A stretch of DNA of 64,000 bases, taken from positions 13,449-77,448 of the forward strand of contig CAVQUV010000010.1 of NCBI GenBank assembly GCA_963716855.1. Direction: 5' to 3'. The stretch comes from an uncultured beta proteobacterium (GTDB lineage: Bacteria > Pseudomonadota > Gammaproteobacteria > Burkholderiales > SG8-39). This document shows positions 41,937-57,968 of this stretch, one piece after another (position 1 is the stretch's first letter; the number at the start of each line of letters is the position of its first letter). The position numbers and the translations under genes were made by a program. The notes under the pieces are model-generated. The model saw only the letters and a program-made list of their open reading frames with translations. It had not been told where the DNA came from and made no database searches.

Positions 41937-42741
41937 TCAGATCTGGATCGCGCCGATGCGGTTGTGGATCGCGCGTAGCACCGACAGCGCCGCGAGCGTC
42001 GAAGTCTTGGGGTTCTCTTCGAGCGGCTTCCCCGTCACCTCGATGCGCAGCTGTCCGAAGCCGCCCTCGGCCTCGATGATATGCACGTTGCCCGGCGCCG
42101 CCGGGTCGGCGCTCAGCGAACACTCGGTCGCCTCGAACCCGATGCCCGCGAGCGCGATCGTCGCCGCGACGTTGGCGTTCTGCGGGAACAGCCGCGCCGC
42201 GTCGCCGGCGTTGCCCCGGTAGAACTCGACCGCCTGGTCGATCGCTTCGAGGTCGCAGAGCTTCTCCGCGTGCGTGCCGCGCCAGGCCTGCGGCGCCTTG
42301 CGCGAGGTGTAGCGGACGCGATCGAGCCCGCCGAGGCGCGCCGCCGCGAGCGCGTCTACGCCCGCGATCGCGCCGGCCGGAATCATCAGCTTGCCCATGT
42401 GCGTGCGACTCGCGCGCTCGAGCCGCTGAAGGAGCGCGGCATCGGTGAGCGAGCCGACCGAGGTCACCAGGAAGTCCATGCCGCTCGTCAGGCACGCCTC
42501 GCCGTACTCGGCGACCGCGGCATGGCCGGCGCACTCGATCGCCAGCTCGGGCACCTCGCGCAGCTTCGCCAGGCTGTCGACCACTTCCTCCGGCGCGACC
42601 CCGCTCGCCAGGGCGCGCTCGCTTCGCCGTAGATCCGGGCCGCACCAGCACCGAGAGGCGTACGCGCTTCGCTTCTTTGCGCAGGGCGCGCGCGACGGTG
42701 CTGCCGACTGCGCCGAGCCCGATGAGCAGGATGTGCCGCAT
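41937..42741 (-). CDS. nadX: L-aspartate dehydrogenase family (NadX-like), one +1 frameshift near 42623
   Basis: IGLGAVG, ECAGH, GAIAGVD, FPQNANVAAT, NPKTSTLAA. Confidence 0.88.
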
Positions 42742-42854
42742 GTTCCCTCCGTGAGGGCCGCAACTTTACGCGTGCGGCCGGGCGCCGAACAGGTCCACGG
42801 CGCCATGGACTCCGGGCCGGCACGCCCGCTGCCTACACCGAGCCAAGAAAGCGC

Positions 42855-42919
42855 TTGACACGCTATCTATAGTGAGGGCAATATGTTCCGTATTCAAAAC
42901 ATCGTTCCTTATTTGGAAC
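42855..42919 (+). promoter_or_regulatory. sigma70 promoter with two operator-like palindromes
   Basis: TTGACA-N18-CAATAT, then GTTCCGTATTCAAAAC and GTTCCTTATTTGGAAC in an AT-rich patch. Confidence 0.65.
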
Positions 42920-42964
42920 ATACACGTTTTGAACCTCCCTTGTTCGGAGCACAAGAGGAAGCCC

Positions 42965-43279
42965 ATGCCCGGTGAATGGCAGGACGTAGCGGCGGTCGAC
43001 GCGGTGACCGAGGACATGCCCCTGGCAGTGAAGGTCGGCGACCGCGAATTCGGGATCTACGCCGTCAACGGGACCCACTACGCCCTCGAAGACGTCTGCC
43101 CCCACGCCTATGCCCTGCTCTCGCAGGGCTTCGTGGACGGCGACGAGGTCGAGTGCCCGCTGCACGGTGCGAAGTTTCACATCCCCACCGGAAAGTGCAC
43201 GAAGGAACCGGGCGGACGTGACCTCGCATGCTTCGCGATCCGGAGCGAAGGCGGGCGGCTCTTCCTGAAGATCGCCTAG
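42965..43279 (+). CDS. Rieske [2Fe-2S] ferredoxin
   Basis: CPH..LSQG..ECPLHG. Confidence 0.93.
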   Translation: MPGEWQDVAAVDAVTEDMPLAVKVGDREFGIYAVNGTHYALEDVCPHAYALLSQGFVDGDEVECPLHGAKFHIPTGKCTKEPGGRDLACFAIRSEGGRLFLKIA

Positions 43280-43297
43280 CGAGCCTGGAGCAGCGCA

Positions 43298-44098
43298 ATG
43301 CGCGACATCCGCATCGACTTTCGCAACGTCAGCAAGCGGTTCCCCGCAAAACGCAAGGATGAGACGGACGTCGTCGCGGTGCAGGGCGTCAACCTCGCCA
43401 TCGCCGACGGCGAGGTGGTTTCGCTGATCGGCCCGAGCGGCTGCGGCAAGTCCACGCTCCTCAACATGGGCTCCGGCCTCTACCTGCCCACCGAGGGCGA
43501 GGTCACCGTGAACGGCAAGCGCGTGACCGGCCCGAGCAAGGACGTGGCCTTCATGCTGCAGAAGGATCTGCTCCTGCCCTGGCGGACGATCCTGCAGAAC
43601 GCCGAGCTCGGCCTCGAGATCCAGGGCGTCCCGGCCAAGGAGCGCCGCAGCCGCGCGCATGCGCTGCTCACGCGCTGCCATCTCGCCGGATTCGAACGCC
43701 ACTACCCGCACCAGCTCTCCGGCGGCATGCGCCAGCGCGCGGCCCTCGCGCGCACGCTCGCGGTCGACCCCCTCGTCTTGCTGATGGACGAGCCGTTCTC
43801 GGCGCTCGACGCGCAAACGAAGATGGTGCTGCAACAAGATCTCGCCCAGACCCTCGCGGCGGAAAAGAAAACCGCCCTGCTGATCACGCACGACCTCGTC
43901 GAATCGATCGCCCTTTCGGACCGCATCCTGGTGATGAGCGCCCGCCCCGGCACGATCATCGAGGAGATCCGCCTCGACGATCTACCCGACCGGGACAACC
44001 CGATGGTGCGGCGGCGCCGGCCGCGCGTGCAGGAATACGCCGCGCGCCTCATGGAGCTGCTCCATCTGCGCGACAAGATCGAGGCCGAGGAAATCTAG
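43298..44098 (+). CDS. SsuB/TauB-type ABC ATPase
   Basis: GPSGCGKST, LSGGMRQR, MDEPFSALD. Confidence 0.93.
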   Translation: MRDIRIDFRNVSKRFPAKRKDETDVVAVQGVNLAIADGEVVSLIGPSGCGKSTLLNMGSGLYLPTEGEVTVNGKRVTGPSKDVAFMLQKDLLLPWRTILQNAELGLEIQGVPAKERRSRAHALLTRCHLAGFERHYPHQLSGGMRQRAALARTLAVDPLVLLMDEPFSALDAQTKMVLQQDLAQTLAAEKKTALLITHDLVESIALSDRILVMSARPGTIIEEIRLDDLPDRDNPMVRRRRPRVQEYAARLMELLHLRDKIEAEEI

Positions 44099-44129
44099 GC
44101 CGACCACCGAATCCACCAGGAGAAGCCGC

Positions 44130-45113
44130 ATGACCCCCAAGAGAACCGTCCTCAAGTCCGCGCTCGCGATCGCGATGCTGTCGCTCGCGACGGCCGGCCC
44201 GGCGCGGGCCCAGACCGAGGAGATCACCTACCTGCTCCCGGCCGCCTCGTTCCTGCCGGCGTTCGGACCCTGGATGCTCGCGCAGGCGCGCGGCTACTAC
44301 GCCCAGGAAGGCCTGAAGGTGAACTTCGTGTCCGCGAAGGGCGGCGTCGACGTCGCCAAGCAGGTCGGTGCCGGCAATGCCCTGGTCGGCGGCGCGATCG
44401 GCGACACGCCGATCATCGCCCGCGCTCAGGGCGTGCCGGTGAAGGCGGTCGCCGTGCTCGGCGGCCGATCGCTCACGCAGCTGGTCGTGCACGAGGGCAA
44501 AGGCATCAACGGGCCGAAGGACCTCAAGGGCCGCACGATCACGACGATGGCCTATCAGGACACCACGTTCTACTCGCTGCTCGGGATGCTCGCGACGGCC
44601 GGCCTGACCAAGAACGACGTTGACGCGCAGGCCGCCGGACCCGCGGGCGTGTGGCAGCTCTTCGCGGCGGGCAAGGCCGACGCGATGGCGGCGGTGCCCG
44701 ATTGGATCGCCTCCGCGACCCAGGCCGGCGCGAAGGTGAAGATCTACTCGTCGGACGAGTACTTCAAGAGCATGGCCCAGGCGATCCTCGTCTCCGACGA
44801 GACGATCCAGAAGCGGCCGGAGCTCGTGCGCAAGCTCGTCCGCGCCACGCTCAAGGGCATGCAGGACATCATGAAGGATCCGGCCGGCGCCGCGCGCGAC
44901 TACGCGACCGTGGTCACCCAGCACAAGGGCAAGGAAGCCTACGTCGAAGAGGTGTTCAAGCTCTACAACACCTACGTGTATCCCGGTCAAAAGGTGCTCG
45001 GTGCGATCGACCCGGAACGGCTCGCGGCGGTGCAGAAGTTCTACGTGAAGGAAGGCATCGTTCCCAAGGAAGTGCCGGTCGCGGACCTCTATACCAACCG
45101 GTTCGTCCAGTAG
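44130..45113 (+). CDS. NMT1/SsuA-type ABC substrate-binding protein
   Basis: Signal peptide, GYYAQEGL, KDLKGRTI, DLYTNRFV. Confidence 0.9.
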   Translation: MTPKRTVLKSALAIAMLSLATAGPARAQTEEITYLLPAASFLPAFGPWMLAQARGYYAQEGLKVNFVSAKGGVDVAKQVGAGNALVGGAIGDTPIIARAQGVPVKAVAVLGGRSLTQLVVHEGKGINGPKDLKGRTITTMAYQDTTFYSLLGMLATAGLTKNDVDAQAAGPAGVWQLFAAGKADAMAAVPDWIASATQAGAKVKIYSSDEYFKSMAQAILVSDETIQKRPELVRKLVRATLKGMQDIMKDPAGAARDYATVVTQHKGKEAYVEEVFKLYNTYVYPGQKVLGAIDPERLAAVQKFYVKEGIVPKEVPVADLYTNRFVQ

Positions 45114-45135
45114 CGGACTGCGGAGACCCGCCCCG

Positions 45136-45930
45136 ATGGCCTCGGCCCACTTTTCAGTGCCCTTGCGCGGCCCCGCGGCCGCGAGCCTGGCGGTACTCGT
45201 CGCGTTCCTCGCGGGATGGGAATGGCTGCCCGGCCTCGCGAAGATCCCGGAGTTCATCCTGCCCCCGGCGTCCAAGGTCTGGTCGGAGTTCCTGCGCATG
45301 AGCGCGAACGAGCGCCTGTGGTACCACACGGGGATCACTTCGCTCGAGGTGGTCGTCGGCTTCGTGCTCGGGTCCCTGCTCGGGGTCGTGATCGGGTTCA
45401 TTCTCGGGATGGCGCCGCGCGCGGAGCTGGTGCTCTCGCCCTACATCCTCGCGCTGCAGATCGCCCCGAAGGTCGCGTTCGCCCCGCTCTTCGTGATGTG
45501 GCTCGGCTACACGGTCTACCCGAAGATCCTGGTGGCGATCCTGATCGTGTTCTTCCCGGTGATGGTGAACGTTCTCACCGCGGTGCGCACCGTCGATCCC
45601 GACATGGTGAACCTGGCGCGCGCGTTCTCCGCGACCCGCCTGCAGATCTTCCGCATGATCGAGTATCCGGCCTCGCTGCCGCCGCTCTTCTCGGGGCTGC
45701 GCATCGCGGCCACGCTCGCGGTCATCGGCGTCGTCGTCGGCGAGCTGGTCGGGGGCAACATCGGCCTCGGCTACCTGCTCACGTTCGGCGAGGGCCAGGG
45801 CAACACCGCGATGGTCTTCGTCACGATCATCGTGCTGACCGTCATCGGCATCGTCGCCTACGGGGTCGTCGTGCTCGCCGAGCGGCGCGTGCTCCACTAC
45901 CTGCCGCGGGCGCAGCACTCGGCGGTGTAG
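45136..45930 (+). CDS. SsuC/TauC-type ABC permease
   Basis: ILPPAS, PKVAFAPL, EAA-like loop, GLGY. Confidence 0.92.
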   Translation: MASAHFSVPLRGPAAASLAVLVAFLAGWEWLPGLAKIPEFILPPASKVWSEFLRMSANERLWYHTGITSLEVVVGFVLGSLLGVVIGFILGMAPRAELVLSPYILALQIAPKVAFAPLFVMWLGYTVYPKILVAILIVFFPVMVNVLTAVRTVDPDMVNLARAFSATRLQIFRMIEYPASLPPLFSGLRIAATLAVIGVVVGELVGGNIGLGYLLTFGEGQGNTAMVFVTIIVLTVIGIVAYGVVVLAERRVLHYLPRAQHSAV

Positions 45931-45953
45931 GCATCGGCAATCAAGGAGGCAGC

Positions 45954-46322
45954 ATGTCTGAAGTCGGACCCATGTTGACGCACATGCCCGCCGCGAACAC
46001 GGCGGGCCTCGTGCAGGATTTCAATCCGTACCTGCAGGCGTTCCGCACGGCGCGCCGCAGCGAAGCGCCCGGCAAGGGACAGATCTACAACCCGCCCGAG
46101 CGCGAGCTGATCGTGTGGCAGACGCGCCCCGCGCCGCCGACCGAGTTCGAGCAATCGCTCGCCGCCGCGCTGGAGCAGATCTTCGCGCAGCGCATCTACG
46201 AGCTCCCCGACATCGTCGCGGCGCTCAACCGCGACGGCTTGCGCTCGCGCCAGGGAGAGACCTGGACCGAGCAGAACTTCGTCGCCACCTTCCGCGAGCT
46301 CGGCGCGCTCGCTTTCGGCTGA
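45954..46322 (+). CDS. Small protein with recombinase-like HTH C-terminus, function unknown
   Basis: AAGGAGG SD; PTEFEQSLAAALEQIF..L..IVAALN..G..WTEQNF. Confidence 0.8.
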   Translation: MSEVGPMLTHMPAANTAGLVQDFNPYLQAFRTARRSEAPGKGQIYNPPERELIVWQTRPAPPTEFEQSLAAALEQIFAQRIYELPDIVAALNRDGLRSRQGETWTEQNFVATFRELGALAFG

Positions 46323-46333
46323 GGAGGCCTCCG

Positions 46334-47380
46334 ATGGTCGATGAACAGGCAGTCGAGCGGCTCGTCAATCGCGGGCTCCGCAACCAGTGGTATCCGGTGC
46401 TGCCGAGCTGGGCGGTCGCGGGCAGCCCGATCGGAATCACGCGCCTCTCGGAGAATCTGGTGCTGTGGCGCGACGACGAGGGCACCGTGCGCGCGGTCGA
46501 GGACCGCTGCCCGCACCGCGGGGCGCGGCTCTCGCTCGGCTGGAATCTCGGCGACCGGCTCGCGTGCTGGTATCACGGCGTGGAGGTTGACGGCACCGGC
46601 ACGGTCCGCAGGGTGCCGGCGGTCGGCGCCTGCCCGCTCGAGGGCAAGCAGTGCGTGAAGAGCTACCCGGTGAAGGAGCTGCGCGGCGCGATCTTCGCGT
46701 ACTTCGGCGACGAGGCGCACCCCGAGCCGTGCGCGCTCGAGCTGCCGGAGGAGCTCGCGAGCCCCGCCTACGGCGCGATCCTCTGCTTCGCGAAATGGAA
46801 GTGCAACTACCGCTACGCCATCGACAACGTCATGGACCCGATGCACGGCGCGTACCTGCACGCGGTGTCGCACTCGATGGCCTCCGGCGACAAGACCGCG
46901 AACATGCAGCTGCGCAAGACCCCGACCGGGCTTGCGTTCGAGAAGACCAATCAGCGCGACGTGAACTTCGACTGGGTCGAGCTCGGGCAGTCGGGCGCCA
47001 CCTGGCTGCGGCTGTCGATCCCCTACCGTGCGAACGCCGGCCCGGGCGGCAACTTCGGCATCGTCGGCTTCGCCACCCCGGTGGACGAGGCGAACTGCCT
47101 GGTGTTCTTCTGGCGCACGCGCAAGTGCGAGGGCTGGGTGCGGGACGTCTGGCAGTTCATGTACCGGACGAAGCTCGAAGGGCTGCACTGGGCGGTGCTC
47201 GAGCAGGATCGGTTCGTGCTCGAAAACCTCGCACCCGATGCGCGCTCGCGCGAATTCCTCTACCAGCACGACACCGGGCTTGCCCGGGTGCGCCGCGTCC
47301 TGCAGAAGCAGGCCGAGGAGCAGCTCGCGGCGCTCGAGGCGCATCGCGCACGGGCCGCGCCGGCGCGGGCGAGCGCCTGA
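46334..47380 (+). CDS. Rieske non-heme iron oxygenase catalytic subunit
   Basis: CPHRG..CWYHG Rieske ligands, DPMHGAYLH and EQD mononuclear Fe ligands. Confidence 0.93.
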   Translation: MVDEQAVERLVNRGLRNQWYPVLPSWAVAGSPIGITRLSENLVLWRDDEGTVRAVEDRCPHRGARLSLGWNLGDRLACWYHGVEVDGTGTVRRVPAVGACPLEGKQCVKSYPVKELRGAIFAYFGDEAHPEPCALELPEELASPAYGAILCFAKWKCNYRYAIDNVMDPMHGAYLHAVSHSMASGDKTANMQLRKTPTGLAFEKTNQRDVNFDWVELGQSGATWLRLSIPYRANAGPGGNFGIVGFATPVDEANCLVFFWRTRKCEGWVRDVWQFMYRTKLEGLHWAVLEQDRFVLENLAPDARSREFLYQHDTGLARVRRVLQKQAEEQLAALEAHRARAAPARASA

Positions 47381-47409: not shown

Positions 47410-48141
47410 ATGCTTCGCGACAAGCGCATCCTGATCACCGGCGCCGCGCGCGGGCTCGGCCGCGCGTTCGCGGAGCACGCGATCGCGGCCGGGGCGCGTG
47501 TTGCGGTGGCCGACGTTCTCGAGGATGCGGGCCGGACGGCCGCGGGCGAGATCGGCGCGGTCTTCCTGCCGCTCGACCTCGCCTCGCCCGCCTCCATCCA
47601 GGCCTGCGTCGCGCGCGCGTCCGAAGCCCTCGGCGGGCTCGACGGGCTCGTGAACAACGGCGCGATCACGAGCTCCGGGGGCAAGACGCTCGAGGAGCTC
47701 GACGTGGACGTATGGGACCGCGTGATGACGGTGAACGTGCGCGGGACCTGGCTCGCCACGCGCGCCGCCCTGCCCCACCTGCGCGCCTCCGGATCGGGGC
47801 GGGTCGTCAACATCGCCTCCGATACCGCATTGTGGGGCGCGCCGCGTCTGCTCGCCTACGTCGCGAGCAAGGGCGCCGTCATCGCCATGACCCGCACGAT
47901 GGCGCGCGAGCTCGGCGCCGACGCGATCACCGTCAACGCGGTCGCGCCCGGGCTCACGCTCGTCGAGGCGACCGAGTACGTGCCGGCCGAGCGCCACCGC
48001 CTCTACGTCGAGGGCCGGGCGCTGACTCGCACGCAGGCGCCGGCCGACGTCTGCGGTGCCGTGAGCTTTCTCCTGTCGGACGCGGCGGCGTTCATCACCG
48101 GCCAGCTCCTCGCCGTCAACGGCGGATTCGTCATGCATTGA
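47410..48141 (+). CDS. SDR oxidoreductase
   Basis: TGAARGLG, NNGA, YVASKG. Confidence 0.92.
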   Translation: MLRDKRILITGAARGLGRAFAEHAIAAGARVAVADVLEDAGRTAAGEIGAVFLPLDLASPASIQACVARASEALGGLDGLVNNGAITSSGGKTLEELDVDVWDRVMTVNVRGTWLATRAALPHLRASGSGRVVNIASDTALWGAPRLLAYVASKGAVIAMTRTMARELGADAITVNAVAPGLTLVEATEYVPAERHRLYVEGRALTRTQAPADVCGAVSFLLSDAAAFITGQLLAVNGGFVMH

Positions 48142-48178: not shown

Positions 48179-48721
48179 ATGAGCGATCAGGCAGTCAAGG
48201 ATGCGAAAGCGCAGCAGTCGTGGGACCGCCCGGCGGGCGCGACCTTCGCGCAGTGGATGGAGTCGCGCGTCGCGCGGCTCGCCTCGCGCCGCTACGACTG
48301 GAACGCGCTGAAGTTCCAGGCCGACTTCGATCCGAAGTACCGGCGCGCGCAGATGCGCTACGTCGGCACCGGGGGCACTGGGGTCGCCTCCGACGTCAAC
48401 GTCGTCCCGGCGGAGCACTTCACCTTCTCGACCATGATCATCCCGGCGGGCCACGAGGGCCCGATGCACATCCACAACGACGTGGAGGAAATCTTCTTCG
48501 TCCTGCGCGGCAAGGTGAAGGTGATGTGCGAGAAGGACGGCGAGACCTGGGAGGCGGTGGTCGGCGAGCGCGACCTGATCTCGATCCCGCCGGGCGTGTA
48601 CCGCGGCGAGATCAACATCGGCGAGGAGGACGCGCTGATGTGCGTCATGCTCGGGGCGTCGAAGCCGATCACGCCCACCTACCCGCCCGACCATCCGCTC
48701 GCGAAGATCAAGCGCGGCTGA
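48179..48721 (+). CDS. Cupin domain protein
   Basis: PMHIHNDVEEIFFVLRG, IPPGVYR. Confidence 0.9.
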   Translation: MSDQAVKDAKAQQSWDRPAGATFAQWMESRVARLASRRYDWNALKFQADFDPKYRRAQMRYVGTGGTGVASDVNVVPAEHFTFSTMIIPAGHEGPMHIHNDVEEIFFVLRGKVKVMCEKDGETWEAVVGERDLISIPPGVYRGEINIGEEDALMCVMLGASKPITPTYPPDHPLAKIKRG

Positions 48722-49578
48722 TGTCCTCCGCTCCCGGCCTCGCCGACGCGCGCGTCGCGCGCCATCCGCTCGACGAGCGGCGGACGGCGCGCGGCGTGGT
48801 GTCCTTCCGCGCCGCCGGTGCGGGGCCGGCGTTGTGCCTCCTGCACGGCATCGGCAGCCAGTCCGCCTCCTGGGCGCCGCAGCTCGACGCGCTCGGGGCG
48901 CGCTATCGCGTGGTCGCCTGGGATGCGCCGGGATACGGGCGCTCAGATGCACTTGCGCCCGCCGCACCCGTTGCGGCCGACTACGCCGCGACGCTCGCCG
49001 CGCTCTGGAATGCGCTGGGGATCGCCCGGGCGGTCGTGGTCGCGAGCTCGCTCGGCGCGCTCATCGCCGGCGCGTTTGCCGCACGCTGGCCCGCGCGCGT
49101 GGCCGGACTCGTGCTGCTCAATCCGGCCGGCGGTTACGGGCATGCCGAGCCGGCGGAGCGCGAAGCGATGCTCGCCGCGCGCCTGGACCGCCTTGCCGCG
49201 CTCGGGCCCGCGGGGATGGCCCGCAACCTCGCGTCCGGCATGCTTTCGCCCGCGGCTTCCGCCGAGTCGCGTGCGCTCGCTGCATGGAGCACCGCGCAGC
49301 TCCGCCCGGACGGCTATTCACAGGCCGCGAGAATGCTCGCGGGCGGCAGCCTGGCCGACGACGCGGCGCGCTACGACGGACCCGTTCTGGTCGTGGCGGC
49401 GAGCGGCGACACGATCACGCCGCCGGCGGCTTGCGAAGCGCTCGCCGCGGCCTTCCCGCACGGCGCCTTCAAATTTCTGGAGGGGCCCGGCCACCTCTCC
49501 TACCTGGACGTGCCGGACACGGTGAACGCGCTTGTCGCCGAGTTCGCGGCGCGCTGCTTCAAGGAGGCGACGACATGA
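48721..49578 (+). CDS. Alpha/beta hydrolase
   Basis: LLHGIG, WDAPGYGRS, ASSLG nucleophile elbow, DTITP, GHLSY. Confidence 0.9.
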   Translation: MSSAPGLADARVARHPLDERRTARGVVSFRAAGAGPALCLLHGIGSQSASWAPQLDALGARYRVVAWDAPGYGRSDALAPAAPVAADYAATLAALWNALGIARAVVVASSLGALIAGAFAARWPARVAGLVLLNPAGGYGHAEPAEREAMLAARLDRLAALGPAGMARNLASGMLSPAASAESRALAAWSTAQLRPDGYSQAARMLAGGSLADDAARYDGPVLVVAASGDTITPPAACEALAAAFPHGAFKFLEGPGHLSYLDVPDTVNALVAEFAARCFKEATT

Positions 49579-50363: not shown

Positions 50364-51172
50364 CCGGCGTGCGGCCTTTCTCGCTCGGGGTCGAGGACCG
50401 CGTGGCGGTCGTCACCGGCGGCTCGTCGGGAATCGGGCTGGCGACCGCGCGCACGCTGCTCGCCGCCGGTGCGCGCGTGGCGATCTGCGGCCGCGACGCG
50501 CGCCGCCTCGAGCAGGCGCGCCAGGCGCTCGAACCGGTCGCCGGCACCGACCGGGTCCTCGCCGATCGGTGCGACGTGCTCGACGCCGACGCGATGGGCG
50601 GGTTCGCACGCGCGGTCGCGGACCGCTTCGGGCCCGCCGGCATCCTGGTGAACAATGCCGGCCAGGGCCGGGTGTCCACATTCGGCGACACGACCGACGC
50701 CGCCTGGCGCGAAGAGCTCGAGCTCAAGTTCTTCAGCGTGATCCGCCCGACGCGCGCCTTCCTGCCCCAGCTCGAGCGCGCGGGCGCCGGCGCGATCGTG
50801 TGCGTGAACTCGCTGCTCGCGCGCCAGCCGGAGCCGCACATGGTCGCCACCTCCGCCGCGCGTGCGGGCGTCCTGAACCTGGTCCGCTCGCTCGCCACGG
50901 AGTTCGCGCCCATGGGCGTGCGGGTGAACATGGTCCTGATCGGACTGGTCGAGTCCGGCCAGTGGCGTCGCCGCTACGAGACTCAGGCCGCGCCCGGCGA
51001 GAGCTGGGACGCGTGGACGGCCGGGCTCGCGCGCACCAAACACATCCCGCTCGGCCGGCTCGGCAAGCCCGAGGAGGCGGCGCACGCGATCGCGTTCCTC
51101 GCCTCGCCGCTCGCCTCCTACACCACCGGCAGCTTCATCGACGTTTCAGGGGGACATTCCCGCCATGTCTGA
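50360..51172 (+). CDS. SDR oxidoreductase (atypical, no YxxxK)
   Basis: TGGSSGIG, NNAG, HMVATSAARAG. Confidence 0.9.
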   Translation: MTGVRPFSLGVEDRVAVVTGGSSGIGLATARTLLAAGARVAICGRDARRLEQARQALEPVAGTDRVLADRCDVLDADAMGGFARAVADRFGPAGILVNNAGQGRVSTFGDTTDAAWREELELKFFSVIRPTRAFLPQLERAGAGAIVCVNSLLARQPEPHMVATSAARAGVLNLVRSLATEFAPMGVRVNMVLIGLVESGQWRRRYETQAAPGESWDAWTAGLARTKHIPLGRLGKPEEAAHAIAFLASPLASYTTGSFIDVSGGHSRHV

Positions 51173-52890
51173 ACAGCGCATTACCGTCGGCGAGCTCGTC
51201 GCCGCATTCCTCGAGGAGTGCGGCGTGCGCGCGGCATTCGGCGTGATCTCCATCCACAACATGCCGATCCTCGACGCGTTCGGCCGGCGCGCCGCCGCGG
51301 CGGCCGCGCGAGGAGCGGCGGCGCCCATCCGCTTCGTGCCCGCGCGCAGCGAGCCCGGCGCGGTCAACATGGCCGATGCGTATGCCCGGGTCTCGGGCGG
51401 CCTCGGCGTTGCGGTGACCAGCACCGGCACCGCCGCCGGCAACGCGTGCGGCGCGATGGTGGAGGCGCTCACGGCGGGAACGCCGGTCGTGCACCTGACC
51501 GGCCAGATCGAAGTGCCGTATCTCGACCGCGACCTCGCCTACATCCACGAGGCGCCGGAGCAGCTCGACATGCTGCGCGCAGTGTCGAAGGCCGCGTTCC
51601 GCGTGCGCAGCGCCGAGACGGCGCTCGGCACGCTGCGCGAGGCGGTCCGCGTCGCGCTCACTGCGCCCCGCGGCCCGGTGAGCGTGGAGATCCCGATCGA
51701 CATCCAGTCGACCGAGATCGAGATCCCCGCCTCGCTCGCGCCGGCCGTCGCGCCGGTGTCGCTGCCCCGTGCGGGCGAGATCGACGCGCTCGCCGAGCGT
51801 CTCGCACGCGCCAAGCGCCCGTTGCTATGGCTCGGCGGCGGCGCACGCGCCGCCGGCGCCGCCGTGAAGCGGCTCGTCGACCTCGGCTTCGGCGTGGTGA
51901 CCAGCGTGCAGGGGCGCGGCATCGTGCCCGAGGATCATCCGCTGTCCCTCGGGGCGTTCAACCTCTACGGACCGGTCGAAAAGTTCTACGGCACCTGCGA
52001 CGCGATGCTCGTCGTCGGCTCGCGCCTGCGCAGCAACGAGACGCTGAAGTACAAGCTCAAGCTGCCGCGACCGCTCTACCGGATCGACGCGGACCCGCAG
52101 AGCCAGGGGCGCTGCTACGCCGACGATTTCTTCGTCGCCGCCGACAGCGCGGCGGCGCTCGCCGCGCTCGCCGATCGGTTGCAGGGACGGATGAGGCCGG
52201 ATCCCGCGTTCGCCCGCGATCTCGCGGCGACGCGTGAGGCCGCCGAGAAGCTCGTCCGCGGCGGTCTCGGGCCGTACGAGCGCCTGGTCGCCGAGCTGCA
52301 GCGCGCGGTCGGGCGCGACTTCGTCTGGGTGCGCGACGTGACGGTGTCGAACAGCACGTGGGGGAATCGCAGCCTGCGGATCGCCGGCCCGCGCGACGGC
52401 GTACACGCGCTGGGCGGCGGGATCGGCCAGGGGATTCAGATGGCCATCGGTGCGGCAATCGCGGAGTCAACTTTCGCGATTGCAGGGGGCGCCGCGCTTG
52501 CGGCCGGCGGACGCAAGACCCTGTGCCTCGTCGGTGACGGCGGCCTGCAGGTGAACATCGGCGAGCTCGCGACGCTGGTGCAGGAGCAGGCCGACGTGAT
52601 CGTCGTGCTGATGAACGATCGCGGCTACGGCGTCATCCGCAACATCCAGGATGCGCAGTACGGCGGGCGCAGGTACTACGCCGATCTGCACACGCCGGAC
52701 TTCGCCGCGCTCGCGCAGTCGATCGCCCTGCCCTTCCATCGGGTGCGCGATCTCGCGGCCGTGGACGGCGTCCTGAAGGATGCGATGGGGCGACGCGGGC
52801 CGACGCTCGTCGAGATCGACATGGTCGCCGTCGGGCCGTTTGCGAACGCGTTCGCCGGCCCGCCGGTGCAAGACGGCTGCAGCCGCATGA
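51165..52890 (+). CDS. Thiamine diphosphate-dependent enzyme; native stop probably lost by a +1 base near 52869
   Basis: GVISIHN, SEPGA catalytic Glu, GDGG..MND ThDP motif; TGA at 52888-52890 overlaps the next ATG. Confidence 0.88.
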
Positions 52891-54353
52891 GCGTGCTCCC
52901 GATCTGCGTCGGCGGCGAGTGGCGGCGCGGCCGCGGCGAGCTCTACGCCTCGCGCTACCCCGCCGACGACAGCGTCAACGCCGAGCTCGCCGCGGCGAGC
53001 GTCGCCGACGTCGAGGAGGCGATTGCAGCCGCCGATGCGGCCTGGCGCCGTCGCGACTGGCGCGACCTCAAGCCGCACGAACGGGCGGCCGTCCTCTATC
53101 GCGTCAGCGCGCTGATCCGCGAGCGGGCGGAGGAGCTGGCGCACCTGCAGCGGCGCGACAACGGCAAGCCGATCAGCGAGACCCGCGCGCTGGTCGCGAG
53201 TGCCGCCGGCACGTTCCAGTTCTTCGCGGCCGCGTGCGAGACGCTCGAGGAGACATTGACCCCCCCGCGCGGCGACTACCTCACGATGAGCGTCCACGAG
53301 CCGCTCGGCGTGGTCGCGGCGATCACGCCCTGGAACTCGCCGATCGCGAGCGAGGCGCAGAAGCTCGCGCCCGCCCTCGCCGCCGGCAACGCGGTGATCG
53401 TGAAGCCCGCCGAGGTGACGCCGCTTGCCGCCCTCGAGCTCGGTCGCATCTGCGAGCTGGCCGGCGTGCCCCGGGGCGTCGTGAGCATCGTGCCGGGCAA
53501 GGGCTCGGTGATCGGCGACGCAATCGTGAAGCATCCGCTGGTGAAGAAGGTCTCGTTCACCGGCGGCACGACGACCGGCCGCGCGCTCGCGAAGCTCGCG
53601 GCCGAGAAGCTCATGCCGGTGACGCTGGAACTCGGCGGCAAGTCGCCGACGATCGTGTGCGAGGACGCCGACCTGGACCACGCGGTGAACGGCGTGCTGT
53701 ACGGGATCTTCAGCTCCTCGGGCGAGTCGTGCATCGCGGGTTCGCGCCTGTTCGTGCACGAGTCGATCCGCACGCAATTCCTCGACCGGCTGGTGGCGAA
53801 AGCGAACGCGCTGCGCGTCGGCGACCCGGAGGACCCGCGCACGCAGATGGGTCCCCTTATCACCGCGAAGCACCGCGAGTCGATCGAGCGCTACGTCCAG
53901 CTCGGACTCGACGAGGGCGGCAAGCTGCTCGCCGGCGGCGAGCGTCCGCAGGGCGGGCTCTTCGACCGCGGCTGGTTCTACCGGCCGACGATCCTGACCG
54001 GGCTCGGCAACCGCGCGCGGATCTGCCAGGAGGAGATCTTCGGGCCGGTCCTCGTGGCCCTCTCCTACCGCGACGAGGCGGACCTGCTCGCGCAGGCGAA
54101 CGACAGCGTCTTCGGCCTCGCCGCCGGCATCTGGACGCGCGACTACAAGCGCGCGTGGCGGATCGCGCGCGCGCTCGAGACCGGGACCGTCTGGATCAAC
54201 ACCTACAAGCTGTTCTCGATCTCGACGCCGTTCACCGGCATCAAGGAGAGCGGGCTCGGCATCGAGAAGGGCCGACTCGGCATCCTCCAGTACAAGCACC
54301 AGAAGAGCCTGTACTGGGGATTGAACGAACGGCCGCTGCCTTGGGCCGACTGA
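52887..54353 (+). CDS. Aldehyde dehydrogenase
   Basis: ITPWNSP, FTGG, LELGGKS, GESCIAG, EEIFGP. Confidence 0.93.
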   Translation: MSVLPICVGGEWRRGRGELYASRYPADDSVNAELAAASVADVEEAIAAADAAWRRRDWRDLKPHERAAVLYRVSALIRERAEELAHLQRRDNGKPISETRALVASAAGTFQFFAAACETLEETLTPPRGDYLTMSVHEPLGVVAAITPWNSPIASEAQKLAPALAAGNAVIVKPAEVTPLAALELGRICELAGVPRGVVSIVPGKGSVIGDAIVKHPLVKKVSFTGGTTTGRALAKLAAEKLMPVTLELGGKSPTIVCEDADLDHAVNGVLYGIFSSSGESCIAGSRLFVHESIRTQFLDRLVAKANALRVGDPEDPRTQMGPLITAKHRESIERYVQLGLDEGGKLLAGGERPQGGLFDRGWFYRPTILTGLGNRARICQEEIFGPVLVALSYRDEADLLAQANDSVFGLAAGIWTRDYKRAWRIARALETGTVWINTYKLFSISTPFTGIKESGLGIEKGRLGILQYKHQKSLYWGLNERPLPWAD

Positions 54354-54365
54354 ACGGAGCCTCCC

Positions 54366-55298
54366 ATGAGCATCCTCGGAATCGACCGCATCACCTACGG
54401 CGTCGCGGACGCCGCGACCTGCCGCAAGTTCTTTCTCGACTGGGGCCTCAAGCTCGTGCACGAGTCGGGCGACGCGCTCGACTTCGAGACGCTGAACGGC
54501 TGCGAGGTGCACGTCCGCCACGAGGAGGACCCGACCCTCCCGCCGGCGATCGAGGACCTCCCGACCGTCCGCGAGGTCGTGTGGGGCGTCGAGTCGCGCG
54601 CCGACATCGAGCGGCTGCGCGCGGCGCTCGGCGCCGAGGGGCACTACGTCGAGCGCTTCGGCACGCTGCACGCCACCGACCCGAACGGCCTCGCGCTCGC
54701 CTTCCGCGTGACGCACAAGCGCAAGGTCGACGTGAAGGGCGTCCCGATTAATGCGTGGGGGCAGCCGGGACGGGGCGTGAACCTCCGCAGCACGTTCTAC
54801 GAGCGCGCCGAGCCGATCGAAGTCGGGCACGTGGTCTTCTTCACCGACCGGCTTGCCGAGCTCGAGCGCTTCTACGTCGAGAAGCTCGGCTTCGCGGTCT
54901 CCGACCGCTATCCCGGCCGCGGCGTCTTCCTGCGCTGCGCGCCGGAGGGCGGACACCACGATCTCTTCCTGCTGCAGCCCCCGCAGCCCAAGCGCGGGCT
55001 CAATCACGTGGCCTTCGCGGTGCGCGACATCCACGAGGTCTTCGGCGGCGGGCTGCACATCTCGCGCTGCGGCTGGCAGACCGAGATCGGCCCGGGGCGC
55101 CATCCGATCTCGTCGGCGTACTTCTGGTACGTGAAGAATCCGGCCGGCGCCTTGGCCGAGTACTACACCGACGAGGACCAGCTCGACCGCGCCTGGCAGC
55201 CGCGCGAGTTCCAGCAGGCGCCGGAGGTGTTCGCCGAGTGGGCGGTCAGCGGCGGGATCGACGGCAAGACGCGCCGGCAGAGCCGCGGACCCGCCTGA
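54366..55298 (+). CDS. Two-domain VOC protein, probable extradiol ring-cleavage dioxygenase
   Basis: GHVVF, HHD, NHVAF, GRHP, YFWY..NPAG..EYY pattern of type I extradiol enzymes. Confidence 0.85.
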   Translation: MSILGIDRITYGVADAATCRKFFLDWGLKLVHESGDALDFETLNGCEVHVRHEEDPTLPPAIEDLPTVREVVWGVESRADIERLRAALGAEGHYVERFGTLHATDPNGLALAFRVTHKRKVDVKGVPINAWGQPGRGVNLRSTFYERAEPIEVGHVVFFTDRLAELERFYVEKLGFAVSDRYPGRGVFLRCAPEGGHHDLFLLQPPQPKRGLNHVAFAVRDIHEVFGGGLHISRCGWQTEIGPGRHPISSAYFWYVKNPAGALAEYYTDEDQLDRAWQPREFQQAPEVFAEWAVSGGIDGKTRRQSRGPA

Positions 55299-55299
55299 C

Positions 55300-56757
55300 G
55301 TGACGGAGCGCTTCGACCTCGTCGTCCGCAACGGCACCGTCATCGACGGCACGCGCGCGCCGCGCTTCGCTGCCGACGTCGCCGTAGCCGGGGATCGCAT
55401 CGTTCGCGTCGGGAAGCTCGACGGCGCGCGCGGCGCGACCGAGATCGACGCCACCGGCAGGATCGTCGCGCCGGGTTTCATCGACGCGCACACCCACGAC
55501 GACCGGCTGATGCTGTCGGCGCCGGAGATGGCGCCCAAGGTCAGCCAGGGCGTCACGACGGTCGTCGCCGGCAACTGCGGCATTTCGCTCGCGCCGATGC
55601 CCGGCGGCCCGCGGCGGCCGGTCACGCCGCCGCTCGACCTGCTCGACGAGGACGGCGGCTGGTTCCGCTTCCGCACCTTCGCCGAGTACGTCGGCGCGCT
55701 GCGCGACGCGCCGGCGGCGACCAACGCCGCCCTCCTCGTCGGCCACAGCACGCTCCGAGTCGCGACGCTCGACGATCTGGAGCGTCCCGCGCGCCCGGCC
55801 GAGATCGAGCGGATGCGCGGGCTCGTGCGCGAGGCGCTCGCCGCGGGCGCGATCGGCGTCTCGACCGGGCTCTACTACGAGCCGGCCGCGGCCGCGCCGA
55901 CCGAGGAGGTGATCGAGATCTGCCGCCCGCTCGCCGAGTTCGGCGGCCTCTACTGCACGCACATGCGCGACGAGGCCGAAAAGGTGCTCGACTCGCTCGA
56001 GGAAACCTTCCGCATCGGCCGCGAGGTCGGCGTGCCGGTCGTGATCTCCCACCACAAGGTCGCCGGCCTGCCGAATCACGGCCGCTCGCGCGAGACGCTG
56101 CCGCTGATCGCCGAGCGCATGCGCTCGCAGGCGATCGGGCTCGACTGCTACCCGTACTGCGCCTCCTCGACGATCCTGAGCGCCGCGCGCGCCGCGGTCG
56201 CTGCGAAGACGCTCGTCACCTGGTCGAAGCCGCATCCGGAGTACTCGGGGATGGACATTGCCGAGGTCGCGGCGAAGATGGGTGTGCCGCCGGCCGAGGC
56301 GATCGAGCGGCTGCGGCCCGCCGGGGCGATCTACTTCGCGATGGACGAAGGCGACGTGCAGCGCATCCTCGCGTTCGAGCCGACGATGGTCGGCTCCGAC
56401 GGCCTGCCGCACGACGCCGCGCCGCATCCGCGGCTGTGGAGCAGTTTTCCCCGCGTGCTCGGGCACTACGCGCGCGACCTCGGCCTCTTTCCGCTCGAGA
56501 CCGCCGTGCACAAGATGACCGGGCTCACCGCCCGCACGTTCGGCCTGAAGGATCGCGGCGTCGTGCGCGAAGGCGCGTTCGCCGATCTCACTCTGTTCGA
56601 TCCGGACACCGTGGGCGAGGCGGGAACGTTCGCTCGGCCGATCCAGGCGGCGCACGGGATCGACACCGTGATCGTGAACGGCGCGGTCGTGTGGCGCCGG
56701 GGCGCGCCGAGCGGCGCTCGCCCCGGACGCGTGCTCGCGCGCAACGCACGGGCATGA
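55300..56757 (+). CDS. N-acyl-D-amino acid deacylase family amidohydrolase
   Basis: PGFIDAHTH, GNCG, THMRDE, SHHK, GSDG, HPR. Confidence 0.9.
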   Translation: MTERFDLVVRNGTVIDGTRAPRFAADVAVAGDRIVRVGKLDGARGATEIDATGRIVAPGFIDAHTHDDRLMLSAPEMAPKVSQGVTTVVAGNCGISLAPMPGGPRRPVTPPLDLLDEDGGWFRFRTFAEYVGALRDAPAATNAALLVGHSTLRVATLDDLERPARPAEIERMRGLVREALAAGAIGVSTGLYYEPAAAAPTEEVIEICRPLAEFGGLYCTHMRDEAEKVLDSLEETFRIGREVGVPVVISHHKVAGLPNHGRSRETLPLIAERMRSQAIGLDCYPYCASSTILSAARAAVAAKTLVTWSKPHPEYSGMDIAEVAAKMGVPPAEAIERLRPAGAIYFAMDEGDVQRILAFEPTMVGSDGLPHDAAPHPRLWSSFPRVLGHYARDLGLFPLETAVHKMTGLTARTFGLKDRGVVREGAFADLTLFDPDTVGEAGTFARPIQAAHGIDTVIVNGAVVWRRGAPSGARPGRVLARNARA

Positions 56758-57968
56758 CCGAGCACATCGTCATCGTCGGCGCCGGCCAGGCCGGCGGCTG
56801 GGCCGCAAAGACGCTGCGGGCTGAAGGCTTCGCGGGCCGCGTCACGCTGATCGGCCTCGAGCCGCATCCGCCCTACGAACGCCCGCCGCTCTCGAAGGGC
56901 GTGCTTGCGGGCAGCGCAACGGTCGAAAGCTGCTATCTCTTCAAGCCGGACGCCTTCGGCGCGCTCGACCTCGACTTCCGCCCGGGCGTGCGCGCCACTC
57001 GGATTGACCGCGCGGCGCGCGCCGTTCACCTCGAGGACGGATCGTCGGTCCCCTACGACAAGCTGATCCTCGCGACCGGCGGCGAGGCGCGCCGGCTGCC
57101 GGTGCCCGGCGGCGACGGGCCGCGCGTGCACTATCTGCGCACCCTCGACGAGTCCCTCGCGATCCGGGCGGCGCTCGGCCCCGGACGCCGGCTGGCGGTC
57201 GTGGGCGGCGGCTGGATCGGGCTCGAGGTCGCCGCGACCGCGCGCAAGGGCGGCGCGGCGGTCACCGTCCTCGAGACGGTGGACCGGCTGTGTGCGCGCG
57301 CGGTGCCGCCTTCGGTCTCGGCGTTCCTGCACGGCTTGCACGAGCGGAACGGCGTTGCGATCCGCACGAGCTGCGGCGTGAAGGCGATCGAAGACCGCGG
57401 CGCGGAGGGCCTGCGCCTCGCCCTCGGCGACGGCTCGACCGTCGACGCGGACGCGGTGGTGGTCGGCATCGGCCTCGTCGCGCAGATCGGGCTCGCGCGC
57501 GAGGCGGGCCTCGACGTCGGCGACGGCGTGCTCGTCGACGAGCGGTGCCGCTCGTCCGACCCGAACATCCTCGTCGCGGGCGACTGCGCGAACATGCCGC
57601 TCGCCCGCCTCGGCCGGCGCGTGCGGCTCGAGTCGTGGGCCAACGCCCAGAATCAGGCCATCGTCGCCGCGAAGAGCGCCCTGGGACACGATGTGCGCTA
57701 CGACGAGCTGCCGTGGTTCTGGTCCGACCAGTTCGACGCCAACGTGCAACTCCTCGGGCTGCCGGAGCGCTGGCCGGAGCCGGTCGTGCGCGGGGACCGG
57801 AGCGGCGCGAGCTTCAGCCTCTTCTATCTCGACGGCGAGCGGATCGTCGCGGTCGTCAGCATCAACGCGCCTCGGGACCTGCGCGCCGCGAAGCGGGTGA
57901 TGGAAGCCGGTCGTGCAGTCCGCGCGGCCGATCTCGCGGATCCCGCGGTCAATCTCGCGAAGCTATGA
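56754..57968 (+). CDS. Ferredoxin-NAD(P) reductase (GR-type)
   Basis: GAGQAG, PYERPPLSK, GGGWIGLE, RLESWANA, PWFWSDQ. Confidence 0.93.
   Translation: MTEHIVIVGAGQAGGWAAKTLRAEGFAGRVTLIGLEPHPPYERPPLSKGVLAGSATVESCYLFKPDAFGALDLDFRPGVRATRIDRAARAVHLEDGSSVPYDKLILATGGEARRLPVPGGDGPRVHYLRTLDESLAIRAALGPGRRLAVVGGGWIGLEVAATARKGGAAVTVLETVDRLCARAVPPSVSAFLHGLHERNGVAIRTSCGVKAIEDRGAEGLRLALGDGSTVDADAVVVGIGLVAQIGLAREAGLDVGDGVLVDERCRSSDPNILVAGDCANMPLARLGRRVRLESWANAQNQAIVAAKSALGHDVRYDELPWFWSDQFDANVQLLGLPERWPEPVVRGDRSGASFSLFYLDGERIVAVVSINAPRDLRAAKRVMEAGRAVRAADLADPAVNLAKL

Follow-up and report, generated by a model that had tools for sequence, protein, structure and literature searches.

Which compound is degraded by the genes at positions 41937–57968 of the DNA analysed here, a 64,000-nucleotide stretch of contig CAVQUV010000010.1 from an uncultured beta proteobacterium (below, the window)? 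The locus is a meta-cleavage-type aromatic operon with unusual additions, and a preliminary description had read it as a complete catabolic cluster, possibly for a nitrogen-containing aromatic ring. It is one copy of a real, widely conserved operon that is common to distant bacterial families. We tentatively propose that the operon degrades a bicyclic N-heteroaromatic carboxylic acid, specifically kynurenate (4-hydroxyquinoline-2-carboxylate), via the 'quinoline pathway' of tryptophan breakdown described in the 1960s. We regard this assignment as possible rather than probable, and another N-aromatic acid handled likewise is about as likely as kynurenate, roughly one in three.

The genes in this region were called from the list of open reading frames (ORFs), a frame plot of third-position G+C (GC3) and the context of the start codons. 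Domains were assigned with Pfam and NCBIfam profiles, and comparisons with solved structures are given in bits. The G+C content of the window is about 69% throughout, and every reading frame is backed by the GC3 frame plot. Sixteen reading frames give 17 gene products, all of them on the + strand except the first. Within the operon the genes are separated by gaps of 1–37 nucleotides (nt) or overlap by 1–8 nt. These coordinates confirm the tightly packed + strand operon with a divergent NadX-like gene that had been described, and the profiles and the frame plot place the genes named earlier at or near their expected positions. The features are as follows.

41937..42741, − strand: nadX-like aspartate dehydrogenase (AspDH) gene, divergent from the operon and frameshifted in the assembly; Asp_DH_C 103.9 bits.
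42742..42871, no strand: divergent intergenic region, reaching 42964 if the ferredoxin begins at its second Met.
42872..43279, + strand: Rieske-type [2Fe-2S] ferredoxin; Pfam Rieske 69.8 bits; 74/80 loci.
43298..44098, + strand: ATP-binding cassette (ABC) transporter ATPase, non-core; Pfam ABC_tran; 9/80 loci.
44130..45113, + strand: NMT1/SsuA-family periplasmic binding protein, non-core; Pfam NMT1 135.3 bits; 8/80 loci.
45136..45930, + strand: ABC permease, non-core; Pfam BPD_transp_1; 11/80 loci.
45954..46322, + strand: small HTH_62 (PF20552) protein of 122 amino acids (aa), proposed oxygenase-bound subunit; Pfam 86.9 bits.
46334..47380, + strand: VanA/phthalate-type Rieske oxygenase, alpha subunit only; Pfam Rieske 76.3 and VanA_C 54 bits.
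47410..48141, + strand: SDR1, classical short-chain dehydrogenase/reductase (SDR), proposed cis-dihydrodiol dehydrogenase; adh_short 168.6 bits; 80/80 loci.
48179..48721, + strand: monocupin of 180 aa; Cupin_2 43.8 bits.
48721..49578, + strand: alpha/beta hydrolase with a Ser-Asp-His triad; Abhydrolase_1 98 bits.
49575..50363, + strand: IclR-family regulator; IclR_C 134.6 and HTH_IclR 51.2 bits; 77/80 loci.
50360..51172, + strand: SDR2, atypical SDR of the PRK07062 family; NF005468 437.9 bits (cut-off 266); 73/80 loci.
51165..52886, + strand: thiamine diphosphate (ThDP)-dependent enzyme of the PRK07064 family; NF005470 860 bits (cut-off 495); reads through into the next gene.
52887..54353, + strand: NAD(P)-dependent aldehyde dehydrogenase (ALDH); Aldedh 549.5 bits.
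54366..55298, + strand: two-domain extradiol dioxygenase of the vicinal oxygen chelate (VOC) type, 310 aa; Glyoxalase (PF00903) 54.6 bits.
55300..56757, + strand: D-aminoacylase-type amidohydrolase, a lineage-specific insertion; Amidohydro_3; 617.6 bits against 1m7j.
56754..57968, + strand: glutathione-reductase-type ferredoxin-NAD(+) reductase; Pyr_redox_2 232.3 and Reductase_C 98.2 bits.

The conservation of the gene set was assessed by a scan seeded with the oxygenase over one genome per species. Of 600 candidate stretches, 572 were confirmed as relatives, and the analysis continued with the best 80 loci. A gene was counted as present when tblastn matched it at E ≤ 1e-10 and a single segment covered 50% or more of it at an identity of 35% or more. 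The core consists of 13 genes, which encode NadX, the Rieske ferredoxin, HTH_62, the oxygenase, SDR1, the cupin, the hydrolase, IclR, SDR2, the ThDP enzyme, the ALDH, the VOC enzyme and the reductase. All 13 are clustered in 61 of the 80 loci, and 72 loci have 11 or more of them; where the core is incomplete, a contig end or a frameshift is mostly the cause. Burkholderia, Paraburkholderia (with chromosome 2 of P. xenovorans LB400), Caballeronia, Trinickia, Reyranella and uncultured Burkholderiales are represented among the loci. Identity is lowest for HTH_62 (about 40%) and highest for the cupin (about 80%). Since 61 loci retrieved through the oxygenase hold the complete core, the co-occurrence of the gene set is far beyond chance. 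The earlier view of a single catabolic cluster that is kept across genomes is thereby borne out. Among 401 sampled Pseudomonadota, 14 score above the cut-off of the ThDP marker NF005470, as do 3 of 61 sampled Burkholderiales genomes (a sample that counts the unpublished genome G026 among the negatives) and 14 of 151 genomes of a second family. The regions around these matches carry the same genes in other orders and in other families. The full set is present in two further bacterial families (L109–L111, L115), and in a third it is split in two (L112/L113 with L144/L145).

The oxygenase has the ligands of both metal sites. Its Rieske ligands C59, H61, C78 and H81 (C-x-H...C-x2-H) are invariant in 26 aligned sequences, as are D168, H171, H176 and D292, which include the iron motif D-x2-H-x4-H, and VanA_C scores 54 bits against a cut-off of 23.5. 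The VanA_C-type domain thus has the residues of a mononuclear iron site of two His and one carboxylate, the latter presumably one of these Asp residues. The best solved match is phthalate dioxygenase (7fhr, 98.1 bits). No gene for a classical beta subunit was seen at the locus. The nearest NCBIfam family of the ferredoxin, which has its C-x-H...C-x2-H motif at residue 76, is AndAb (78.6 bits, under the cut-off), and that of the reductase is AndAa (401.7 bits, under the cut-off of 650).

The gene next to the oxygenase is the small HTH_62 gene. In 87 of 92 loci it is the gene directly 5′ of the oxygenase gene and shares its strand, at a gap of 13–238 nt (median 79). Among the five exceptions, two have ABC genes in between, one is at a contig edge and two have a Pfam-only HTH_62 match about 95 nt upstream. 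HTH_62 was found in 15 of the 401 sampled Pseudomonadota genomes, and 14 of these are exactly the 14 genomes with the ThDP marker; the fifteenth (G391) has a weak match of 31.4 bits with no cluster genes nearby. The window's own genome holds a single copy. The only label of the family in the ESM Atlas is 'recombinase-like helix-turn-helix'. A complex of HTH_62 with the oxygenase, predicted with custom alignments of both proteins, scored 0.85 (runs 0.83, 0.86 and 0.85) against 0.00 for the best of three controls; of 80 solved complexes 58 come up to this score, as do 2 of 110 mismatched pairs. The pLDDT (predicted local distance difference test) of the partner is at least 73 and the contacts agree in at least 79%, in a model with one oxygenase chain where HTH_62 may sit on a surface used for trimer contacts. 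The model supports the view that HTH_62 may bind the oxygenase.

Catalytic residues are intact in the oxygenase, the VOC enzyme, the hydrolase, the ThDP enzyme, the ALDH and SDR1. The protein SDR1 has the TG-x3-G-x-G, NNG and Y150-x3-K motifs of a classical SDR. In SDR2 the first two of these motifs are present and Y-x3-K was not found, so the label 'atypical' given to it earlier is appropriate. The extradiol His/His/Glu pattern noted in the VOC protein is also there. Residues H155, H198, H214, Y255 and E265 pair in the HMMER alignment with His, His, His, Tyr and Glu of the homoprotocatechuate 2,3-dioxygenase chains 1f1r/1f1x, which we take to be H155, H200, H214, Y257 and E267. The metal triad and the catalytic His and Tyr are conserved in 86 sequences. 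Both halves of the protein align with two-domain extradiol dioxygenases (best solved match 3b59, 74.1 bits), and it falls outside the named equivalogs TIGR02295 (70.7 against a cut-off of 321.4) and TIGR03211 (52.8 against 320.2). The proposed succession of Rieske oxygenase, dihydrodiol dehydrogenase and extradiol dioxygenase is supported by these features.

The ThDP enzyme has the N, M and C domains of TPP_enzyme and GDG at residue 457, followed by ND; its nearest solved relatives are BbmA and acetolactate synthases (143–150 bits). The nearest NCBIfam families of the ALDH are BADH (486.6) and HpaE (462.1), both under the cut-off, and its Glu and Cys motifs are present. The ThDP enzyme invites the question of whether the substrate is aromatic at all. 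A non-aromatic alicyclic or cyclitol substrate could be converted by the two SDRs into a 1,2-diketone, which the ThDP enzyme would cleave hydrolytically and the ALDH oxidise. Cyclohexane-1,2-dione hydrolase is indeed among the solved ThDP relatives (104.9 bits), and two SDRs, a ThDP enzyme and an ALDH suit its logic. Yet BbmA and the acetolactate synthases score higher, and the VOC enzyme retains all extradiol catalytic residues. The oxygenase system, NadX and the molybdenum hydroxylase of some relatives (see below) would stay unexplained, and a phenol-hydroxylase-type flavoprotein adjoins the lower module in L113. We therefore consider such a substrate very improbable.

The assignment of the alpha/beta hydrolase, in which S110, D229 and H257 are conserved, is less clear. 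Its nearest solved structures are esterases (77 bits), an enol-lactonase (63), RutD (60) and HsaD/BphD (58). The models of C–C hydrolases match residues 26–138 only, with TIGR03343 at 52.5 (cut-off 462.15) and NF045632 at 60.5 (cut-off 400), and the solved HsaD and BphD chains align over residues 32–276 at about 58 bits. Judging from these alignments, C–C cleavage by the hydrolase is possible. It would be required in a phenylalanine or meta-tyrosine pathway like E. coli hca/mhp, where the oxygenase and SDR1 would form 2,3-dihydroxyphenylalanine, the VOC enzyme would cleave it and the hydrolase would make the C–C cut. The products would be L-aspartate, which NadX would deaminate, and 2-hydroxypentadienoate, which would pass to the ThDP enzyme, the ALDH and SDR2. 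The resemblance of NadX to a true aspartate dehydrogenase suits this route, as do the full-length match to HsaD/BphD-type hydrolases and the hca/mhp order of oxygenase, diol dehydrogenase, extradiol enzyme and alpha/beta hydrolase. For the reductase and the ferredoxin, the closest NCBIfam models include HcaD and HcaC. Nevertheless, the route is improbable in our view. The hydrolase scores esterases and the enol-lactonase above C–C hydrolases, and the NCBIfam BphD/HsaD models cover only part of it. The cupin, the ThDP enzyme, the ALDH and SDR2 would have no natural role, and the insertion of the molybdenum hydroxylase would be unexplained. Furthermore, measured AspDHs of this type run better toward aspartate, as stated in the accessible part of the report (PMC5554190).

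A nitrogen-containing aromatic substrate had been deduced from three cues, the NadX-like gene, the amidohydrolase and the NMT1-type importer. It is still the best reading, although only the first cue is conserved: NadX is kept in 70 of the 80 loci, the amidohydrolase is found in one of them and in a sister genome, and the importer in 8–11. The NadX protein exceeds the cut-offs of NF009828 (289.4 against 177) and NF009827 (244.5 against 226) and lies under that of TIGR03855 (173.7 against 206.55). The AspDHs of Klebsiella and Delftia show 26.5 and 32.8 U/mg in the reductive direction versus 3.42 and 5.1 U/mg in the oxidative one, and they hardly act on pyruvate or 2-oxoglutarate, according to the accessible part of PMC5554190. 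Human ASPDH is reported, in the available portion of a preprint (bioRxiv 10.64898/2026.06.05.730449), to reduce the unstable enamine 2-aminomuconate in tryptophan catabolism; it is described there as having no AspDH activity and divergent substrate residues. It serves as a precedent for the action of the AspDH family on ring-opening products. A step from iminoaspartate is favoured for NadX because the AspDH cut-offs are passed, the Klebsiella and Delftia enzymes favour reduction and the human enzyme offers this precedent.

The same precedent can be read in another way. In an aminophenol or hydroxyanthranilate route the VOC enzyme or the cupin would cleave an aminated ring, the ALDH would act on an aminomuconate semialdehyde and NadX would be a 2-aminomuconate-type reductase, as human ASPDH is in the part of the preprint cited (bioRxiv 10.64898/2026.06.05.730449). 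The genes for the VOC enzyme, the ALDH and NadX adjoin in Burkholderia-type loci, and the ALDH most resembles semialdehyde dehydrogenases, HpaE for example. However, neither an ACMSD-type decarboxylase nor a RidA-type deaminase was seen in the loci, and the cupin gave no match to the 3-hydroxyanthranilate dioxygenase family beyond E 0.3. The human enzyme as described in that source lacks AspDH activity and has divergent substrate residues, whereas NadX passes the cut-offs for bacterial AspDHs. We rate this route as low as the one from phenylalanine.

Kynurenate degradation, reportedly worked out in Hayaishi's laboratory and said to be drawn in the KEGG tryptophan map, offers a use for every conserved enzyme. 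This route has one oxygenase system, a diol dehydrogenase, an extradiol dioxygenase, a reductase, a 2-oxo-acid decarboxylase and an aldehyde dehydrogenase. It also needs a second ring opening and ends in a four-carbon imino acid. These requirements use all nine conserved enzymes, and kynurenate would fit for this reason. The steps given here are all inferred, with intermediates and end products that reportedly go back to work of the 1960s and to the KEGG map. The Rieske oxygenase, with HTH_62 bound and fed by the ferredoxin and the reductase, would convert kynurenate into the 7,8-cis-dihydrodiol, which SDR1 would oxidise to 7,8-dihydroxykynurenate. Extradiol 8,8a-cleavage by the VOC enzyme would open the benzene ring and leave 4,6-dihydroxypicolinate with a 3-carboxy-3-oxopropenyl chain. 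The atypical SDR2 is proposed to reduce this chain. The ThDP enzyme would then decarboxylate the 2-oxo acid and the ALDH would oxidise the aldehyde, giving 5-(2-carboxyethyl)-4,6-dihydroxypicolinate. Oxidative opening of the pyridone ring next to C5 may be the task of the cupin, and hydrolysis of the resulting amide to 2-oxoglutarate and iminoaspartate that of the alpha/beta hydrolase. The last step would be the reduction of iminoaspartate to L-aspartate by the NadX-like enzyme, whereby the nitrogen is captured. IclR would be the regulator of the operon, and the uptake genes would be exchanged between lineages. That the operon is a complete kynurenate pathway, that its oxygenase belongs to an HTH_62-bearing class and that the AspDHs are iminoaspartate reductases are claims which, taken together, are slightly more doubtful than the substrate itself.

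Parts of the cluster vary between the loci. The NMT1 ABC importer, whose binding protein scores 102.7 bits on SsuA_fam (under the cut-off of 163.5), is replaced elsewhere by TctC, major facilitator superfamily (MFS) or porin genes. By locus count these are TctC binding proteins 9, MFS 4 and Porin_4 65; L109 has an OprD porin. Interchangeable uptake systems which include TctC binding proteins would fit an anionic or carboxylate substrate. The amidohydrolase, which matches the Alcaligenes D-aminoacylase 1m7j, is restricted to the window, L009 and the sister genome (L153).

The informative difference is a molybdenum hydroxylase large subunit of 783–798 aa, which is encoded within the cluster in three of the relatives. 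Its gene follows the ALDH gene directly in the sister genome (L007/L153) and L011 and the ThDP gene in L014. The best solved relatives are CoxL (476.9 bits), 6-hydroxypseudooxynicotine dehydrogenase (7dqx, 461.8) and quinoline 2-oxidoreductase (1t3q, 438.8). The sister genome has a 99% identical oxygenase and the same flanks as the window, and in it a 3.39-kb segment lies between the ALDH and VOC genes, containing this large subunit gene and a gene for 325 aa; the window is cleanly without it (54353–54366 against L153:788-4178). In L011 the same insertion is broken into three frames. The inserted enzyme, as judged from its relatives, supports a heteroaromatic ring independently and could bring quinaldate-type compounds into the route. 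A quinaldate-type molybdenum hydroxylase is known in Serratia and Pseudomonas. The genome of the window (G000) has 15 matches to large subunits of XDH/CoxL-family molybdenum hydroxylases, at 31–44% identity to the sister's gene, on contigs C5, C32, C16, C12, C2 and others. It also holds several VanA-type oxygenase paralogues, and these genes together suggest a broad heteroaromatic and aromatic catabolic repertoire.

Further differences concern electron transfer and the arrangement of the cluster. In L104, from a Burkholderiaceae-type genome, a VanB-like reductase gene (L104:18367-19443; Fer2, DmmA-like_N, NAD_binding_1) follows the VOC gene, and neither a Rieske ferredoxin nor a glutathione-reductase-type reductase was detected at this locus. 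The electron-transfer chain of the same oxygenase has therefore been swapped there. In the family with the split cluster, which has 3.7-Mb genomes of the alphaproteobacterial type (same phylum, different class), an 'oxygenase-less variant' was considered for L112/L113. This was wrong; the oxygenase, HTH_62, SDR1 and cupin genes are located about 6 kb away in the same genomes. Between the cluster halves of this family lie genes for flavin monooxygenases, one with phenol-hydroxylase architecture, and for a tripartite ATP-independent periplasmic (TRAP) transporter binding protein (L113:7334-9298, L113:16840-18024, L144:3009-4031, L145:14863-15888). The flavin monooxygenases may feed hydroxylated analogues into the pathway. 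In the related genomes of L106 and L107 a PNP_UDP_1 phosphorylase-family gene is located within the cluster, between SDR1 and NadX (L106:12381-13217, L107:11058-11912). About 5 kb upstream of the P. xenovorans LB400 cluster lies a serine-recombinase-like gene (L023:61-1623; Recombinase, Zn_ribbon_recom, HTH_17), which hints at a mobile context there.

The strongest competitor of kynurenate is another N-heteroaromatic or aminoaromatic acid degraded by the same outline chemistry, such as xanthurenate, quinaldate or another quinoline or pyridine carboxylate. The oxygenase, the diol dehydrogenase, the extradiol enzyme, the ThDP enzyme and the ALDH as the pair that shortens the side chain, and NadX on an imino or enamino dicarboxylate would all be retained. 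This possibility, for which our expectation is likewise guarded, draws on the conservation of NadX, on the quinoline-oxidoreductase-like molybdenum hydroxylase of the three relatives and on the action of human ASPDH on 2-aminomuconate, as given in the accessible part of the preprint (bioRxiv 10.64898/2026.06.05.730449). The flavin hydroxylases between the half-clusters in L113 and L144 also suggest that hydroxylated analogues are fed in. The constraint is set by NadX: a product that suits an enzyme passing the AspDH cut-offs needs an N-C(COOH)-C-C(O) unit, and few common natural compounds besides the 4-oxygenated quinoline-2-carboxylates would be expected to offer it.

Several observations weigh against kynurenate. 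The cupin is the most conserved protein of the set (56–87% identity across 24 relatives), and its motif 1, H97-x-H99-x3-E103, is invariant. Its motif-2 His, however, is replaced by an invariant Arg142, and the protein thus departs from the standard two-motif cupin dioxygenases; a metal site of two His and one Glu is possible. The mean pLDDT of the cupin model is 71, and the fold matches generic cupins including 5-nitrosalicylate dioxygenase (8ch4) and quercetinase. The hydrolase is about equidistant from esterases, the enol-lactonase, RutD and the C–C hydrolases, so that its role as an amidase is a guess, as is the role of the cupin. The oxygenase scores 44.9 bits against the quinoline enzyme OxoO, compared with 98.1 against phthalate dioxygenase and 85.8 against dicamba demethylase. 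The molybdenum enzyme occurs in three loci only, which are closely related, and in these no gene for an FeS or FAD subunit was found beside that of the hydroxylase. The window's own genome contains no orthologue of the inserted subunit, the best match being 44% identical. The P. aeruginosa PAO1 genes PA3504–PA3514 may be without oxygenase and VOC genes, which, if true, would be a misfit with a single kynurenate route. The link of the genes to kynurenate is a proposal based on the fit of the gene set to the reported pathway. Finally, if the frameshift in nadX is real, the last step of the pathway is lost in this organism.

This frameshift and a second irregularity are probably sequence or assembly errors. 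The 289-aa NadX ORF reported earlier (41937–42806) proved to be chimeric. The true start (42741) and the Rossmann N-terminus belong to another frame, and frame analysis and alignment to L007, L009 and L011 place one extra base at about 42622–42626. The window nadX consequently has no intact reading frame with an N-terminal Rossmann motif; the intact gene in L007 encodes 267 aa. Likewise, the ThDP enzyme and the ALDH are not the two separate ORFs that had been listed. In the window they form a single ORF of 1062 aa (51165–54353), and alignment to L007, L009, L011 and L013 shows one extra base near 52868–52874 that joins the two frames, about 20 nt ahead of the site at which, in L007, the stop codon of the ThDP gene and the start codon of the ALDH gene overlap. 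Both sites were compared with public contigs aligned to the region, which show presence and not absence and some of which are perhaps from relatives. At the nadX site, contigs without the extra base account for 14.6+28 of a depth of 55–67 in run X1 and for 3.81 of 3.81 in run X2. At the ThDP/ALDH site the sole covering contigs (X3, 5.2+2.66 of a depth of 7.86) are without it, and X1, the run of the most similar sample, gave no cover. Thus, neither extra base is supported by sequence outside the window among the contigs of X1–X3. In the relatives L009, L011, L012, L018 and L153 cluster genes are split over 2–5 frames (the ALDH gene in L012, the D-aminoacylase gene in L153). Since split genes in metagenome-assembled relatives are typical indel errors, a biological origin of the insertions in the window is less likely.

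The flanks of the cluster are unrelated to it, with polyamine genes upstream and a hydantoinase downstream, and the boundaries drawn earlier therefore hold. The upstream region 36652–41916 contains an arginine decarboxylase and a saccharopine-dehydrogenase-like gene, is syntenic in L007 and looks like a polyamine (norspermidine-type) biosynthesis set; its frame 39924–41105 has no Pfam match. The start of the Rieske ferredoxin is uncertain, as relatives align from about residue 17–35. In the divergent region 42742–42871 only two short palindromes and no sigma-70-like site were found, and an operator was not identified. The promoter scan gave 0 promoter-like sites, and the number of terminator-like sites (5 against 5.3 expected) is at chance level.

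As a product of tryptophan, kynurenic acid occurs widely in animals and plants, in soil and at sites of infection. If the assignment is correct, it would fill three orphan enzyme entries and make kynurenate turnover readable from the genomes of soil, gut and opportunistic bacteria. The oxygenase would define a new Rieske class, in which the catalytic subunit has a dedicated small HTH_62 protein. The AspDHs of Pseudomonas, Klebsiella, Delftia, Cupriavidus and Burkholderia that are outside the NAD pathway would obtain a physiological role as iminoaspartate reductases, which trap the nitrogen freed on opening of the pyridone ring. The mesophilic AspDHs of metabolic engineering sit in a catabolic operon and not in NAD synthesis, and this suggests an imino acid from ring opening as their natural substrate and reduction as their natural direction. 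Whatever the substrate is, HTH_62 is tied to one oxygenase in the genomes examined and predicted to bind it, so that a 'domain of unknown function' becomes testable.

Among known systems, the E. coli hca/mhp pathway shares with the locus a three-component Rieske oxygenase, supplied by a Rieske ferredoxin and a glutathione-reductase-type reductase, and the subsequent diol dehydrogenase, extradiol dioxygenase and alpha/beta hydrolase. In contrast to hca/mhp, where the oxygenase is an alpha/beta pair, the locus encodes one VanA-type subunit accompanied by HTH_62, and the NCBIfam scores are all under the cut-off. The locus adds the cupin, the ThDP enzyme, the ALDH, the atypical SDR and NadX, and it is without hydratase, aldolase and acylating dehydrogenase. 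With HpaD (homoprotocatechuate dioxygenase, HPCD) the VOC enzyme shares the paired metal ligands and catalytic His and Tyr, and the ALDH reaches 462.1 bits on the HpaE model. Both are nonetheless under the respective cut-offs (70.7 versus 321.4; 462.1 versus 638.35), and the remaining hpa pathway is absent. Degradation of quinoline and 2-oxoquinoline likewise joins a molybdenum hydroxylase (Qor) to a VanA-type Rieske oxygenase (2-oxoquinoline 8-monooxygenase, OxoOR), with QorL matching the inserted subunit at 438.8 bits and OxoO the oxygenase at 44.9 bits. It differs in that the OxoO similarity is weak and limited to the Rieske domain, and neither the window nor most of the loci have the molybdenum enzyme. 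The riboflavin/lumichrome pathway also combines a Rieske oxygenase with a ThDP enzyme and an extradiol enzyme; it was rejected because, according to the accessible text describing it (PMC12746152), it depends on a two-subunit oxygenase, a P450 and a xanthine oxidase, which are absent here.

A similar neighbourhood had been suggested around PA3505, presumably the aspartate dehydrogenase characterised from PAO1. The suggestion is borne out in part, as PA3504–PA3514 are reported as one operon in the part of a preprint that is available (bioRxiv 10.1101/2025.04.03.646983). The same part lists PA3507 as enoyl-ACP-reductase-type (SDR-type), PA3508 as a regulator and PA3512 as an ABC transporter protein. 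In Acinetobacter baumannii, the accessible part of PMC5757984 names neighbouring genes A1S_0954 and A1S_0956–0958 for an alpha/beta hydrolase, an AspDH, an ALDH and an ALS-like protein, all raised by mucin, with a ferredoxin and a hypothetical gene (A1S_0945, A1S_0946) close by. In the literature searched, the PAO1 and A. baumannii locus tags occur in expression and phenotype lists only, with no function assigned. Human ASPDH belongs to the AspDH family, like NadX, and reduces an unstable amino-dicarboxylate that arises when an aromatic ring is opened; it differs from NadX in the activity and substrate residues given above, as far as the available part of the preprint goes (bioRxiv 10.64898/2026.06.05.730449).

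For the degradation of kynurenate, the accessible part of a 2024 review cites only an enzyme paper from 1961 (Horibata et al. 1961; PMC11354673). The pathway is known from enzyme work, and genes for it were not found in the literature searched, which lies outside subscription papers and supplements; within the same scope no solved pathway matches the gene set, as the preliminary description had stated. The Pseudomonas kynurenate ('quinoline') pathway is said to go back to Hayaishi, Taniuchi, Horibata and Behrman, and reportedly includes the orphan enzymes EC 1.14.99.2, 1.3.1.18 and 1.13.11.10. Its reactions are reportedly a double hydroxylation, the dehydrogenation of the diol, an extradiol cleavage, the reduction of the side chain, an oxidative decarboxylation and the breakdown of a dihydroxypicolinate to nitrogen and central metabolites. 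The number and the order of these reaction types match the conserved enzymes of the operon.

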